From Candidatus Sigynarchaeum calidifontis (GTDB lineage Archaea > Asgardarchaeota > Lokiarchaeia > Sigyniarchaeales > Sigyniarchaeaceae): a stretch of 15,608 nt of DNA. The notes beneath the pieces were generated by a model, which saw only the letters and a list, made by a program, of their open reading frames with translations, was not told the origin of the DNA and did not search any database. The stretch's first letter is position 1. Each line of letters opens with the position of its first letter. Position numbers and translations under genes: made by a program. Positions 5,574 to 11,814 of this stretch are shown here, piece by piece. Location: NCBI GenBank assembly GCA_030587475.2, contig JAUQYZ020000041.1, forward strand, positions 1-15,608. The letters are read 5' to 3'.

Positions 5574-6197
5574 GTGAAAGTCGTCGGCATCATCGGATCT
5601 CCGCGCAAGAACGGCGCATCGGCGCGCGTGTTTAATGTCTTTGCCACCGAGCTGAAGATCCTCGCCCCTGAGGCCCAGGTGGAACAAATCATCCTCGCGG
5701 ACATGAAAATGGTCCCGTGCACGGGTTGCGATGCGTGCTTGAAGGGCGATTGTCCGCTTGACAAGGATGATGATTACCCGAAAATAGTCGACAAGCTCCT
5801 CTCGGCCGACGCGATCGTGGTAGCATCTCCGGTCTATTTCTTCAACGTTCCCGGTATTCTCAAGACTTTCATCGACAGGTCCCGGCGCATGAAGATGAAT
5901 CGAAATATGCTCAAGAACAAGTGGTTCGGGACCATCGTGGCATCGGGTCTGCGCAACGGGGGTGCTGAGAGCGTGACCACCCTCCTCCTGGTGTGGGCGC
6001 TCTCCCAGGGCATGCTCCCTGTCTCGGGGCTGGGCAATCCTGTTATCGAGTCCGGATTGCCAATCACGACCTTGCAAAAGGACAAGCTGAAGGAGTTCCG
6101 CAAGCCAGGGGATGAGGACGAGATCGCAGACAAGGCAGCCAAGCGTCTCGCCGAGCGTTTCGTCGAGCTCGTCGCGCTAGTGAAAAAGCAAGCATGA
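5574..6197 (+). CDS. Iron-sulfur flavoprotein / multimeric flavodoxin (WrbA/Isf family)
   Basis: GSPRKNG FMN-binding loop; CTGCDACLKGDC (Cx2Cx2Cx4C); ADAIVVASPVYF; LKTFIDR; RNGGAE. GTG start with GAGGTG upstream, 16 nt after the epimerase stop. Confidence 0.88.
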   Translation: MKVVGIIGSPRKNGASARVFNVFATELKILAPEAQVEQIILADMKMVPCTGCDACLKGDCPLDKDDDYPKIVDKLLSADAIVVASPVYFFNVPGILKTFIDRSRRMKMNRNMLKNKWFGTIVASGLRNGGAESVTTLLLVWALSQGMLPVSGLGNPVIESGLPITTLQKDKLKEFRKPGDEDEIADKAAKRLAERFVELVALVKKQA

Positions 6198-6203
6198 AAG
6201 CGT

Positions 6204-7589
6204 TTAAAATGCGGATTTTATTTTTTTGTATATTTCCTCAACCCTCTTTTTCCATAGCTGGAAATTCTCCATTACATCCTTTGATGGAAACTTCTCATAG
6301 AGCATCTTGATGTCAGTCATCAACTTGTGCACGTATGCAAGGTTGATGAGCAAGTTGGCGTGTGCGAGCGAGTCGAGGAGCCCGATGCGGAACACGCGCG
6401 TGAGGGCGTCCAGCATCGTGAGCTTTAACTCGCCGGCATATGCAATGTTCAATATATCCTTGCCACTCAAGATCTCCTTTTTCAACCCGAAATTCAAGTC
6501 CACGTCAGTAAAATGCTGGAGGGCGATGCGCAATATATCGAGGGCCGCGAATTGTGACCCTTGGGTACGCATGTACTGCGTGTTATATTCCCAGAGAGCA
6601 CTTGCCGAAACGTCTCCTGCCTTGATTGCATTGGCAGCGACGCCGGCCGCGAGCCATCCCGCGCGCATGCTCGCTTCGATGCCCCCGCCGTGCAATGGAT
6701 TCACCTGGCAAGCGCTGTCCCCGACGAGCATGATGCCGTTGTCGACCAGACTCCAGAGCGGGCGTCGGACGGGAACCACTCCTGCACCCGAGCTCAAGAC
6801 CTCGTACTTGCCCTTTACCAGGCGCTTGAGACAGTTTTCCTGGTATCTTTTCTTGATGACCTCACCCATCTTCTCGCCTTTCTTCTGGGGACCGCCGAGA
6901 CCGATGTTCACGACGTTTCTTCCTTTGGGGAAATACCATATATATCCGCCGGGAGCGAGATCTTGCGTGAGATGGATGGTGATGTAATCCTGGCATTGTG
7001 TCTCCGAGTCCAAGAGCTTGAGAATCTCCCGGTAGCATAGTATCGTGTCTTCCGGCTCTATCGTGGTCTCGATCAAGGTGCTTCTCAAGTGCTCGCGGAT
7101 GGTGGAATAAAATCCGCTGGCGTCGATGACGAGCTTGGCATCGATGATATTCTCCTTCCCGTCTGGTTCTGCGACTATAATCCCCTCGACCGAGTCGTTT
7201 TCTTGCAATGCACATTTCACGTGAACGTTATCGCGGAATTCAACACCCTCGTCGATCGCCTCGGAGACCAAACGCTGGCCAAATGCGAGACGGTTGAGCA
7301 AGTATCCTGCTTGCTTTGGATCGACCATCACGTACTCCTTGGTCGCATCCGGGCTCAATAACCGGGCTCCTTTTAGCTGGAAATCCAATTCTTTTCCTTT
7401 CGGATGGGCGATACCGATCATGTCGAAGATCTCGGATCCCATTGCATCGCCGCAAATCTTGTCGCCGATTTTCTCGCGAGGCTTGCGATCGACCAATAAA
7501 ACCCTCAAGCCTTGTCGTCTCAAGAAACGGGCCGCGATGGAGCCGCCCGTCCCGGCTCCAACCACGATCGCGTCGTACTTGTCGCTCAA
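6204..7589 (-). CDS. Geranylgeranyl reductase (digeranylgeranylglycerophospholipid reductase family), FAD-dependent
   Basis: YDAIVVGAGTGG dinucleotide motif; IGDKICGD; PGGYIWYFPK (PxxYxWxFP, GGR signature); GDSACQVNPLHGGGI. Start reassigned to TTG 7589 because a TATA box lies inside the longer ORF. Confidence 0.9.
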   Translation of the reverse strand: MSDKYDAIVVGAGTGGSIAARFLRRQGLRVLLVDRKPREKIGDKICGDAMGSEIFDMIGIAHPKGKELDFQLKGARLLSPDATKEYVMVDPKQAGYLLNRLAFGQRLVSEAIDEGVEFRDNVHVKCALQENDSVEGIIVAEPDGKENIIDAKLVIDASGFYSTIREHLRSTLIETTIEPEDTILCYREILKLLDSETQCQDYITIHLTQDLAPGGYIWYFPKGRNVVNIGLGGPQKKGEKMGEVIKKRYQENCLKRLVKGKYEVLSSGAGVVPVRRPLWSLVDNGIMLVGDSACQVNPLHGGGIEASMRAGWLAAGVAANAIKAGDVSASALWEYNTQYMRTQGSQFAALDILRIALQHFTDVDLNFGLKKEILSGKDILNIAYAGELKLTMLDALTRVFRIGLLDSLAHANLLINLAYVHKLMTDIKMLYEKFPSKDVMENFQLWKKRVEEIYKKIKSAF

Positions 7590-8513: not shown

Positions 8514-9620
8514 ATGGAAAAGCCAGAACCCGATAAATTGGTCACCATGGCATCCAACCTACTTGCTGAAAACAAGATGGCTGGGGCATTTGCGTATTAC
8601 AAGAAGGCAGCAAATTTATACCTCGAAAAGGGTTCATATTTCAAGGTTTTTGAGGTATTCAAGATAATGTCCTATTTATACAAGGAAATGGGCAAGCTGG
8701 GCGAGATGATCCAGCTCGTGCTCGACGCTGCCAGGAAACTGGAGGATTTCAAGGTTTTCGACGTCGCAGCCCGCATGTACGAGAACGCGGGAACCATGAG
8801 TTATGATCTCGCGGATTACGAGAACGCGAGTGCATATTACCAGAACGCATCAGATCTTTACCTGAGCATGTACGAGGAGGATAAGAATGAGGACATGCGG
8901 AAGTTGTCAGGCATCTTGCTCATAAAAAGTGCCGAAGCGACTTACCACATGCCGACCAAGAAGGACAAGAGCGAGAGCCTCATGCTCGAGGGGATCTTCA
9001 GGATATGCGCGCTGGCCGAAAAAATTCCCGATCTCGAGACCCGGCTGATCACAAGCTTCAATCGGGCGATGTTCGCAGAAGCTCGTGCTGCAGCATCCAA
9101 CTTGGCAAAGGCATTCAAGGACGCAAATGACAAGATATCGGTAACGAAGGAATTTAACGTCGAGCTGCTTTCTGCAAATGTCAAGGCGCGAACCTTGCAC
9201 TATCAAGCCGAATATCTGTTCCTGGGATACTTGCTCTCACGGAAGATGGACGGCGATGCCGCGGCCATGAAAGAAGCGACACGCGTCCTTGACTTGCTGC
9301 TCGAAGCGCTCAAGTTGATGCGCGCGATCATCATGAAAGAATATGATCGCGAGGATGTCGACCGCTACTGTTTTGACGGCATGCTGTATGCGATAGCAAG
9401 CTCGTTGATCGGCACGAAGCCCGAGCCAGAGGGTTTCCTGGAGGGTGTTCGGGGTGATGTAATGAGCGCCATCAACCAGAACATATACTACAAGATAATG
9501 ATAACCATCATCGGGCTCGGCCTCAAGCAGGCAAAAAACGCATTGTTCGGTGCAAACCTCGGCAAGCTCGAGCGCGTGAAATCATCGATGATGAAATTGA
9601 TCTATGCTGACATGTTTTGA
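8514..9620 (+). CDS. TPR-like alpha-solenoid protein with SNAP (Sec17/alpha-SNAP)-like N-terminal repeats
   Basis: Repeated A..YY.KAA.LY / AA.MYE.A / A..YYQ.A.DLY helical hairpin pattern. Start reassigned to ATG 8514, downstream of TATTTAAG at 8437-8444. Confidence 0.7.
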   Translation: MEKPEPDKLVTMASNLLAENKMAGAFAYYKKAANLYLEKGSYFKVFEVFKIMSYLYKEMGKLGEMIQLVLDAARKLEDFKVFDVAARMYENAGTMSYDLADYENASAYYQNASDLYLSMYEEDKNEDMRKLSGILLIKSAEATYHMPTKKDKSESLMLEGIFRICALAEKIPDLETRLITSFNRAMFAEARAAASNLAKAFKDANDKISVTKEFNVELLSANVKARTLHYQAEYLFLGYLLSRKMDGDAAAMKEATRVLDLLLEALKLMRAIIMKEYDREDVDRYCFDGMLYAIASSLIGTKPEPEGFLEGVRGDVMSAINQNIYYKIMITIIGLGLKQAKNALFGANLGKLERVKSSMMKLIYADMF

Positions 9621-9625
9621 AAATG

Positions 9626-9684
9626 ATATCGGAATGGGAGTCCCAAGGGCTACTTGGGCTTTGCGAGAAGCTCAGCATTCATAT
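9626..9684 (-). other. Extended stem-loop between convergent genes, overlapping the stop of the minus-strand gene (terminator or SECIS candidate)
   Basis: Nested pairings CCCAAG(9642-47)/CTTGGG(9653-58), GAG/CTC, GAATG(9632-36)/CATTC(9676-80) and ATAT/ATAT. Confidence 0.45.
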
Positions 9685-10616
9685 TTCCTTGCGCTGCTTT
9701 TTGAAGCTTTCTCGTACATCTGCTTGATCATCCCATCCGCGATTCGTTGCTGGCGTTCTGGCAAGTTTATAAGGCGTGGCAGCTCGGGCAAGAGACCCTT
9801 TGCCCGGTCGATACCCTTTCGTAGGTTTTCCTCGAATTCTTCCCTGATCTCGCCCGCGGCCATGATCACGGGGATGGTCCGGGCTTCGCCGGGCTTCAAC
9901 GTGCCGAGGTTCCACTCGATGCCGCTGAACAAGTCGTCGGGTCCTGCCAAGATGATGTCGTTCAGCGAAGGATGCCGTGCATCGATCTTCAACTCGTACG
10001 GGTGGCCGGCGGCATAATGTGCCACATCGAATTCCGGCGTGCTGCAAAAGCCGACGTGCACGTTTCCATTGTTCTGAACGATAGCCTTGTACCTGGTATC
10101 GAAGTAAGCACTGTCGCCATCGTAACTGCTCAAGCCGCCTATATCAAAATCGAAAAGATTGAACAGTCGCAATCCAGTGAAGGGCATTTCGCAAGTGTTT
10201 TTTATCGAGTAGAAGAAAATGCAATTGAGCTCCATCTTCGTGTAATACACGTCTGCGAAGAACTGCGCCTTGATCTCGCGGCTTTTCTCGCCGGATACCT
10301 TTGCGTCTGCGGGTATTTCCTTGTGAAACTCGACCGTGAGCCGGTTCACCATGTTGCCCGCCTTGAGGTTCATGAGCGTGTATGGGAACTCCTTATCACA
10401 ATTCTTGAAAAGGTGGAAGCCGCCCCCAGCGTAGAAGCCGAACCAGGGCCCGCAAAGGTATTCCGTGGGCGTGTCGAGCAACATGATTTCATCGCCTGTG
10501 TCTTTTTTCACGATCTTTAGAGTCTTAGCTGCGATGCCACGTACGATGCCAGATTTCTTTCATATAGTACAGACATAATCGAATGTAATCCAGAACCTCT
10601 TCTGCGTTTCATTCAC
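9672..10616 (-). CDS. Hypothetical beta-rich protein; candidate selenoprotein with N-terminal CxxU motif (in-frame TGA 10560-10562). Conservative call is 9672..10511
   Basis: From GTG 10616 the frame reads MNETQKRFWITFDYVCTI-TGA-KKSGIVRGIAAKTLKIV and continues into the 279-aa ORF of the track. 314 aa total, Cys16 and TGA at codon 19. The 279-aa body is clearly coding; the readthrough is inferred. Confidence 0.62.
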
Positions 10617-10681
10617 CCTTTTTTCTTCTTGATGCTCTTCCTAGATCCTCATGTTTTCGTTTTTTTCACGCGAGTTCCTTC

Positions 10682-10697
10682 AATAAAAGTTTTTAAA
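10682..10697 (-). promoter_or_regulatory. Putative TATA region for the candidate selenoprotein gene
   Basis: Minus strand TTTAAAAACTTTTATT about 65-80 nt upstream of GTG 10616, downstream of a T7 tract (10743-10749) that could terminate the gelsolin-like gene. Confidence 0.45.
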
Positions 10698-10769
10698 TCG
10701 AGCAAAGTAACCATGGATTGCGCAAAAGATAGCAATTATGGGAAAAAAAGATTATCCCAATCGATCATT

Positions 10770-11645
10770 CTACTTCAAGATCTCGACGAAATGCCCTTGG
10801 ATCTTCTTCTTGGTACCGGGATCCATCCCCGAGAACGAGCCTTTTGAAAACTTGATGCTGCCGTTCTCGATCGTGAACTCGCAAATCGGCCCTTCAAGAC
10901 TCTCGATCTTGAAGTGATTTCCTTTCTTGTTGGTGTAGATGTCATTGAATTCTCGCAACAAAGCCATGATTAAACTGCCGGCCTTGAGTTCATCCTCTTT
11001 CGTGATCGTTTCCTTGCCCGTGAGCTTCGTTTCGGAAGCCGTCTGGAAGTCTCCCTCGACGCCTGCATATTCATCGGCGGCCGAGACTTCGGCCGGGATA
11101 GGCTCGAGATCCGGCATCGCTTGTGGTGCGGGGGTCGGTGCTGGTGCCGGCACGGGCGCTGCGGGCCTGGGTGCCGGGGCAGGTGTTGGCGCTGGACTAA
11201 CGGGCCCGGGACGGGGCGCGGTGGTGGTTTTCTGGGCGGGAACCGACGCCGCTGCGGCGCCTTCGCCGATGGCAACGCATTCGCTTTCTACCTTTCTAAA
11301 TGGCAAATCAAACAAGCGCAATAGGGTTTCCCAGTCCGCCTTGACCTCCGGCACGCGCTCTATCATGCGGGCATCGATTTCCTTTATGGCCGTGAGCTGC
11401 CGGCCGATGATCGTCTTGCCGACCTGGTATCCGTGGCCGCGCAAGCTCTCGGCTTGGCGCAGCGCCTTGCGTCGTTTCACGAGGCCATTCTTCTTGCCAT
11501 AATATGCCCACACGACGTTGTTCAACTCGTCTAGAACGATGATGATCTTGTCGTCCGCAAAATGGTCCTTCGACCACGGAACCTCGGTGCACACGCCATC
11601 CTCGCTGACGTCAAACTCGATTGCAAATGTTCCGGATTGTGACAT
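10770..11645 (-). CDS. Gelsolin-like domain protein with Pro/Ala-rich linker and unknown C-terminal domain
   Basis: EVPWSKDHFADDKIIIVLDELNNVVWAYYGKKNGLVKRRKALRQAESL aligns by eye with the gelsolin repeat pattern EV......L...D.FILD....IY.W.G.......R..A...A..L. Linker PAPTPAPAPRPAAPVPAPAPTPAP. Start reassigned to ATG 11645. Confidence 0.68.
   Translation of the reverse strand: MSQSGTFAIEFDVSEDGVCTEVPWSKDHFADDKIIIVLDELNNVVWAYYGKKNGLVKRRKALRQAESLRGHGYQVGKTIIGRQLTAIKEIDARMIERVPEVKADWETLLRLFDLPFRKVESECVAIGEGAAAASVPAQKTTTAPRPGPVSPAPTPAPAPRPAAPVPAPAPTPAPQAMPDLEPIPAEVSAADEYAGVEGDFQTASETKLTGKETITKEDELKAGSLIMALLREFNDIYTNKKGNHFKIESLEGPICEFTIENGSIKFSKGSFSGMDPGTKKKIQGHFVEILK
11121..11240 (-). repeat. Low-complexity Pro/Ala/Thr coding repeat (PAP/PTP) inside the gelsolin-like gene
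   Basis: Encodes PAQKTTTAPRPGPVSPAPTPAPAPRPAAPVPAPAPTPAPQ; codons vary, so the repeat is at protein level. Confidence 0.8.
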
Positions 11646-11654
11646 TTTCGTATC

Positions 11655-11814
11655 CCACGCGACAATAGCTTCTCGGGTGCTCCGGCGGCGCAACAACACC
11701 CTGGCTTCGACGTCCCAGAGCCTGGATCCCTCGCACGCGCGTCACGCTGCCGGCTATCACGCGTGCTGCCGGCGTTCGGATTCGCGTGCGTGTTATTGTC
11801 TAGTGCGCGCGTGG
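11655..11814 (-). ncRNA. Candidate structured 5' leader or ncRNA (four-way junction) upstream of the gelsolin-like gene
   Basis: Nested complementary segments found by eye (see finding). TTTATAAG TATA on the minus strand at 11825-11832. Confidence 0.4.

Follow-up and report, generated by a model that had tools for sequence, protein, structure and literature searches.

An annotated gene of Candidatus Sigynarchaeum calidifontis very probably begins about 100 bases earlier than its database entry indicates and carries an internal UGA codon that is read as selenocysteine (Sec). The gene lies on the reverse strand of a 15,608-nucleotide stretch of genomic DNA, referred to here as the window. From comparisons with related sequences, we consider it highly probable that the product of this gene belongs to an Asgard family of selenoproteins, with the UGA at codon 19 recoded as Sec. 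The relatives appear to constitute a new selenoprotein family that uses a known recoding system.

The reading frame from position 10616 to position 9672 comprises 314 codons followed by a terminal TGA, and its sole internal stop is the TGA at codon 19 (10562–10560). Codon 1 is GTG (10616), codon 16 specifies Cys (10571–10569; the first residue of a CxxU motif), and codon 36 is the GTG (10511–10509) used as the annotated start, which is separated from the TGA by 16 open codons. These features are all as claimed in the original prediction. When its single UGA is read through, the full gene aligns to full-length homologues that carry Cys. The database entry is a 279-residue “hypothetical protein” (P0002) that starts at an internal codon of the longer protein, and gene callers drop the coding segment located 5′ of the TGA (10604–10563). 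Named relatives are hypothetical proteins of Lokiarchaeota, Promethearchaeota, or Sigynarchaeota, and every one is annotated from a downstream start. DNA that is identical, including the TGA, is present in three more assemblies (GCA_030587505.2, GCA_030587545.2, and GCA_030587525.2; probably samples of one study), and therefore the codon is not a one-off assembly error. The sister cluster is labeled Ca. Sigynarchaeum springense.

Relatives carry an ATG start 14–16 codons 5′ of the TGA. The equivalent codon in the window is ACG (10607–10605), which follows the sequence GGUGA (10617–10613). The latter encloses the in-frame GTG at 10616, three codons 5′ of the ACG, and the protein is predicted to be either 314 amino acids long (from the GTG) or 311 (from the ACG). 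The original prediction of a 314-residue selenoprotein is sustained by conservation of the TGA or a Cys codon, by the SECIS element and by the Sec machinery, but the exact length could be the shorter one. A TATA-like stretch at 10682–10697, cited there in favor of the longer start, exists but has no counterpart 5′ of the closest relatives, and thus it is not evidence. A sigma-70 promoter scan was set aside as unsuited to archaea. Among 117 genes of the lokiarchaeal family f4, the start position is occupied by ATA at codon −13, behind GGAGG, in 91, and a canonical start is absent in 93, which indicates that weak starts are usual in this protein family.

At the Sec position of the alignment, TGA is found in all 122 genes of family f4 (117 directly, five beside a small intron), in 12 of 12 loci of the window's own family, in 11 of 12 Thorarchaeia-type genes, in both f28 genes, and in the single f3 gene. 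Cys, as part of CxxC, occupies the position in all nine genes of the lokiarchaeal family f2 and in one Thorarchaeia-type gene. Thus, across ∼160 homologues the site is only ever TGA or a Cys codon and never TAA, TAG, or TGG, as had been anticipated, and TGA is kept in relatives down to ∼24% protein identity, far beyond what is expected by chance. Searches that permit read-through yield matches in many genomes that begin at residue 5–12 and cross one TGA, so conservation extends upstream of this codon, and the Cys homologues run uninterrupted across the site. A 706-residue “fusion” in genome G005 was left out because of an N-run inside it. These comparisons show that UGA is read as sense here and specifies a residue equivalent to Cys.

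The database annotations, which begin every member downstream, would agree with a TGA that is a true stop (as part of a short upstream open reading frame or as a nonsense mutation) or that encodes some other residue, with the protein starting at 10511. This reading is extremely improbable, and the sequence data effectively refute it: only TGA and Cys codons occur at the site, the Cys homologues are continuous, a SECIS is missing in the Cys-type family, and the first strand, which lies 5′ of the codon, is part of the fold. The terminal TGA was also considered as a second Sec codon and rejected, since many relatives have TAA or TAG there.

Several individual loci were observed to depart from the common pattern. 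The Thorarchaeia-type locus L102 (genome G344) has Cys in place of Sec and retains a SECIS-like structure at its stop codon, which suggests a recent Sec-to-Cys change. In the single-contig genome G003, homologue L121 is open for 111 codons only with its SECIS intact, representing either a broken gene or a long-read error. Five of the 122 f4 genes (L079, L090, L092, L096, and L138) carry inserts of 28–32 nucleotides directly 3′ of the Sec codon. The inserts are shaped as bulge–helix–bulge introns, and in each of the five, excision with the cut placed 3′ of the second bulge base brings the sequence back in frame and recovers the conserved Asn that follows Sec. The insertion site is reminiscent of position 37/38 in the anticodon loop of a tRNA. 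The window's copy has no intron at the Sec codon.

Selection on the segment upstream of the TGA was assessed from substitution patterns. Relative to the nearest relative, L053, the 13 codons 5′ of the TGA show seven synonymous changes and no replacement changes, and comparison with ten relatives gives pN values of 0–0.35 and pS values of 0.68–1.4. These codons are therefore under purifying selection, in accord with the conservation that the original prediction required. The gene body has a pN/pS of ∼0.18. Just one synonymous change in the upstream segment can be placed on the window's own branch, which leaves room for recent relaxation and weighs against continued recoding there.

A eukaryote-like (type II) SECIS element is predicted on the reverse strand at 9719–9660, where it covers the last 15 codons, and it is found by a model made without the window's copy. 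The element consists of a 5′ core AUGU (9719–9716; AUGA in relatives), a stem of 11–13 base pairs, an AAAA bulge, a ministem, and a 3′ core AA (9662–9661; GA in most relatives), with the stop codon contained in the 3′ arm. A conserved extra hairpin lies 3′ of the core (9659–9641), and similar hairpins are present in the selD SECIS of this genome and in f4 homologues. Neither the SECIS nor the conserved C-terminal Cys of the protein was part of the original prediction. In the window's family, the SECIS begins with a conserved Met codon, 33–45 nucleotides 5′ of the stop, and the next codon starts with A. RNAalifold predicts the same structure for this family. Covariation is evident in that ten of the 15 pairs have double-sided changes, a level reached in none of 500 shuffles, and slid controls are far lower. 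A SECIS model of 11 relatives, from which the window and its sister were excluded, matches 9625–9733 at 68.7 bits as the sole match in the genome. We consider the covariation to be the better evidence because this score partly reflects coding similarity. SECIS model R1 has no match to the selD or mvhD SECIS elements and is therefore gene specific.

The element escaped a first pattern scan for canonical 3′-UTR SECIS elements owing to its overlap with the coding sequence and its altered core. An Rfam search over 9000–11000 returned nothing meaningful. Two other candidates were rejected: an AUGA at 9684 that pairs with the tail of the convergent gene is not conserved, and a short hairpin 3′ of the stop was not found to be a genome-wide motif of selenoprotein genes.

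The f4 genes carry the arrangement AUGA–stem–AAAAA–stem–GA directly 3′ of the stop. A permissive finder assigned their 122 cores as AUGA/GA (118), AUGA/AA (two), and AGGA/GA (two). The AUGA/GA core is also present in most Thorarchaeia-type genes, in which the UGA of AUGA doubles as the stop codon, as has been reported for VhuU (PMC4989117). The same finder located this core in none of the nine Cys-type f2 genes, even though SelD of f2 genomes still contains Sec. The 5′ GA of the core, invariant in the 122 f4 genes, is missing from the window's copy, which weighs against recoding of this copy. A canonical GA…GA or GA…AA core is thus absent here, with the stem and the A-bulge in place. The sister loci L053 and L071 have AUGU…GA, and the AUGU change is confined to the window copy and this sister lineage (the L001–L053 sister relation comes from a quick tree). 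Of the tandem G·A pairs, which number two, the AUGU clade thus has one replaced by U-A or U·G. The variants AUGA…AA and GUGA…GA have been described, in a study whose models require the 5′ GA (PMC11227280). Our literature search for an AUGU core yielded nothing specific.

The altered core raises the prospect that the family consists of selenoproteins but that the copy in this species is no longer efficiently recoded and is heading toward silence or a truncated product. Such decay would fit both the AUGU…AA core and the ACG in place of ATG, and the other SECIS elements seen in the genome all have canonical cores. We nevertheless consider it unlikely. The AUGU core is older than the split from L053 (∼84% nucleotide identity), yet the 13 upstream codons differ only synonymously. 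The SECIS stem is intact with paired changes, the gene body remains constrained, AUGA…AA is a described variant, and the lost start has been replaced by an in-frame GTG in a setting where non-AUG starts are the norm in f4. Because purifying selection 5′ of the TGA spans the AUGU clade, it is highly likely that recoding still continues in the window's own copy. In this species, yield would probably be reduced but not abolished by the AUGU…AA core together with the weak start. The fuller claim, that the window lineage's copy is recoded by a SECIS without one G·A pair thought to be invariant, in a near-core family of Lokiarchaeia and Thorarchaeia whose fold is unused by listed selenoproteins, is one to which we give an even chance.

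The genome that contains the window (G000) encodes tRNA-Sec, a SecS above its cut-off, and a SelD with an in-frame TGA, and its PSTK-like and EFSec-like genes are clear best matches that score just under or below curated cut-offs. At least three components together with a known selenoprotein, the combination used as a test for Sec machinery, were found in this genome, as the original prediction had expected. Other genes with an in-frame TGA are those for MvhD, HdrA, and a SelW-like protein, each with a canonical SECIS (AUGA…GA or GUGA…GA). The last of these is a 74-residue SelW/Rdx-like gene on contig C249 (∼6190–6410, forward strand), assigned to its family by eye, that has CxxU-GG near the N terminus and a canonical AUGA…GA SECIS 61 nucleotides 3′ of the stop. 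In a 2026 table of prokaryotic selenoproteins, SelW-like carries no archaeal mark.

Matches to the family were found in 219 of 400 sampled Asgard genomes, mostly in one copy, and in ∼90% of the sampled genomes from the window's order. The 131 genomes of families lacking SecS gave one match, a weak one (2.7e-8); since these genomes are kin and not independent, this association is a pattern rather than a test. With this query, the SecS-positive families f6, f7, f9, f20, and f21 gave no match. The selenoprotein family is usually single copy in Lokiarchaeia and Thorarchaeia. Its Cys form is found in complete, single-contig lokiarchaeal genomes of 4.3–6.0 Mb, which are probably from cultured or enriched strains.

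For structural analysis we modeled a natural Cys homologue, L008 (∼26% identity to the window protein), by using a 40-row alignment of unaltered sequences. The model (pLDDT 85, pTM 0.87) consists of a large all-beta domain followed by a long helix and a loose tail. Residues 2–11 form strand 1, and so the segment 5′ of the TGA is part of the fold. The CxxC of L008 falls in the loop joining strands 1 and 2, which was modeled with low confidence, and Sec is predicted to occupy this flexible loop at the end of the first beta-hairpin. In the window, the domain is encoded by 10604–9852 and includes the invariant residues D122, N140, D156-F157-D158, and G161. It is followed by a linker-type helix and flexible tail (9851–9675) that end with a conserved C-terminal Cys (9677–9675).

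Structurally, the model comes closest to the N-terminal supersandwich domains of GH94 and GH15 enzymes (Z scores of 17.6–20), which overlay with an rmsd of ∼3 Å over 217–230 residues at 9–12% identity. The same N-terminal fold and following helix are found in GH15 glucoamylase and glucodextranase (1lf6, 1ulv; TIGR01577) and in GH94 phosphorylases (1v7v, 2cqs, 8bou), with Z scores of 17.6–19.1. Sequence searches of the PDB gave no match, and TIGR01577 (oligosaccharide amylase) matches the N-terminal part weakly (E = 1.4e-3 for P0002, 2.8e-5 at best; score 17 versus a cut-off of 821). In contrast to the GH15 and GH94 enzymes, the Asgard protein carries CxxU or xxxU on its first hairpin and is without the (α/α)6 catalytic barrel, as full-length members all end ∼60 residues past the sandwich. 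It is therefore predicted to be a stand-alone GH15/GH94-type beta-supersandwich that lost this barrel. The original prediction of a beta-sandwich body rather than a thioredoxin fold is borne out by this model. Its proposed echo of DsbA/FrnE active sites appears coincidental: a CxxU near the N terminus is shared with these and other thioredoxin-fold selenoproteins, but the Asgard motif is on a beta-hairpin loop and not at a helix start, the fold is nearly all beta, the first Cys is dispensable, and there is no match to such a family.

At the sequence level, distant relatives occur as accessory domains in secreted proteins, and the closest atlas clusters are Promethearchaeota and Thorarchaeota proteins, none of which is named. 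An accessory beta-sandwich of secreted transglutaminase-like and S8 peptidase/T9SS proteins (e.g., P0063) aligns over 142 columns with a probability of 98% (E = 1.6e-14), and its TM-score to the Asgard model is 0.64–0.68. These accessory-domain proteins are archaeal and bacterial, exported, and multidomain, and they match the C-terminal half of the profile only. The Asgard protein has no signal peptide because the N-terminal residues are taken up by strand 1 and the Sec loop. A related clade (P0045, P0051, P0059, and P0064) has CxxCxxC, possibly metal binding, on the same N-terminal loop.

Given the fold matches and the weak TIGR01577 match, the protein could be a carbohydrate-binding or sugar-enzyme module (a detached GH15/GH94-like N-terminal half, or mutarotase-like) in which Sec acts as a redox switch or nucleophile; a GH2 gene also lies two genes upstream in f2. 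The catalytic residues of GH15 and GH94 enzymes are located in the (α/α)6 barrel, which is absent, and no barrel gene adjoins within the short flanks examined. Moreover, sugar chemistry does not follow from the fold, given that the same domain serves as an accessory module in surface proteins and secreted proteases. We regard a sugar-related role as improbable.

The C-terminal Cys is present in 117 of 117 f4 genes, in 11 of 11 f1 genes, and in f2 genes, and in none of the Thorarchaeia-type genes. The first Cys of CxxU (position −3) is present in the window's family, in all 11 Thorarchaeia-type genes, and in f28, and is absent from 113 of 117 f4 genes; thus, the CxxU context noted originally is preserved in some lineages but is not general. 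Both residues occur in ten of 11 f1 genes. Every member counted has at least one partner Cys, and Sec/Cys is the sole invariant chalcogen site. We favor a cytoplasmic redox protein because an invariant Sec/Cys plus a second Cys is what would be expected if Sec were catalytic and the Cys resolving. The proposal that the family acts in selenol/thiol redox chemistry, with the sandwich holding a substrate or partner, seems to us evenly poised between right and wrong. The Sec loop and the tail have the lowest confidence in the model (pLDDT < 50), so that any proximity between them is tentative.

The sequence data are consistent with the following mechanism. By analogy with the known Asgard pathway, tRNA-Sec and EFSec would insert Sec at codon 19 under SECIS guidance, and the terminal UGA, located within the SECIS stem, would be too close for recoding and so would end the protein. 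The sandwich would hold a ligand or partner bearing a disulfide, a peroxide, or an S/Se adduct for Sec to attack, and Sec may then be recycled via Cys16 and/or the Cys of the flexible C-terminal tail.

Gene neighbors vary among families, and none indicates a pathway. A gene for a roadblock protein with a Ras/Roc-type small GTPase lies upstream in 34 of 36 f4 loci and in eight of eight f2 loci (observed at L018, 2471–3523, and 41 similar upstream loci). The upstream neighbor in f1 encodes a Pro-linker protein; in the window, the upstream gene (10770–11699, reverse strand) encodes a long Pro/Ala linker, has no Pfam match, and is kept beside the selenoprotein gene in the family. In f28 (L104, 2448–5075, and L105), the gene converges on secS and would be cotranscribed with a GcvH-like gene that comes after it, and a radical SAM gene diverges upstream.

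This f28 neighborhood would suit a different role, in which the protein, instead of acting as a redox catalyst, uses Sec and the partner Cys to bind a metal or to carry Se or S, with a link to Sec synthesis as a carrier, a store, or a sensor. The CxxCxxC of P0045, P0051, and P0059 at the same loop and the way in which presence follows SecS, family by family, also fit this role. However, adjacency to secS is seen in one genus only, several SecS-positive families lack a match to this query, the lone Sec of f4 proteins without a neighboring Cys would be a poor metal site by itself, and f2 has plain Cys in organisms that still make selenoproteins. We therefore view a binding or carrier role as possible but less probable than redox catalysis.

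Seven Asgard selenoprotein families have been published: SelD, HdrA, VhuD/FrhD, VhuU/FrhA, Prx-like, AhpF-N-like, and DsbA-like (PMC4989117; PMC11227280; PMC13188914). All are unrelated to the window protein in sequence and fold. Published surveys list eleven selenoprotein families for all archaea, and a 2026 review lists 119 prokaryotic ones. The 2016, 2024, and 2026 catalogues do not contain the family; none of the 119 families has its domain or a GH15/GH94 supersandwich fold, and Pfam and NCBIfam searches gave no match to any published Asgard or tabulated family. Five family motifs were not found in the portions available of 87 supplementary files of PMC11227280, and no description of the family was found in the literature covered, which mostly excludes subscription journals. 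These results agree with the earlier suggestion of a new selenoprotein family that gene callers truncate. Published surveys appear to have missed it because they were mostly homology searches with known families.

In its recoding signals the family resembles Asgard genes with lokiSECIS or eSECIS-like elements, in which a UGA likewise aligns with Cys, an AUGA…GA core with a stem and an A-rich bulge lies 3′, and the same machinery is used. As in the window's family, the SECIS of Asgard selenoprotein genes may overlap the stop codon or coding sequence, and the selD SECIS of this genome shares the type II layout and extra 3′ hairpin. Three features differ from published Asgard SECIS genes: a SECIS that, in the window's family, extends over 15 codons and encloses the stop in its stem; the AUGU…AA core of this copy; and the common use of non-AUG starts.

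These findings suggest that the archaeal selenoproteome is undercounted. The family would place Sec chemistry on a glycosidase-type sandwich, and it supplies Sec and Cys forms that are paired in nature. Its SECIS variants are relevant to the question of which factor recognizes eukaryote-like SECIS elements in archaea that lack SBP2. If the window's copy is indeed recoded, then the Asgard SECIS reader would be less strict than eukaryotic SBP2, and the series AUGA/GA, AUGA/AA, AGGA/GA, AUGU/GA, and AUGU/AA would provide natural alleles for finding it.
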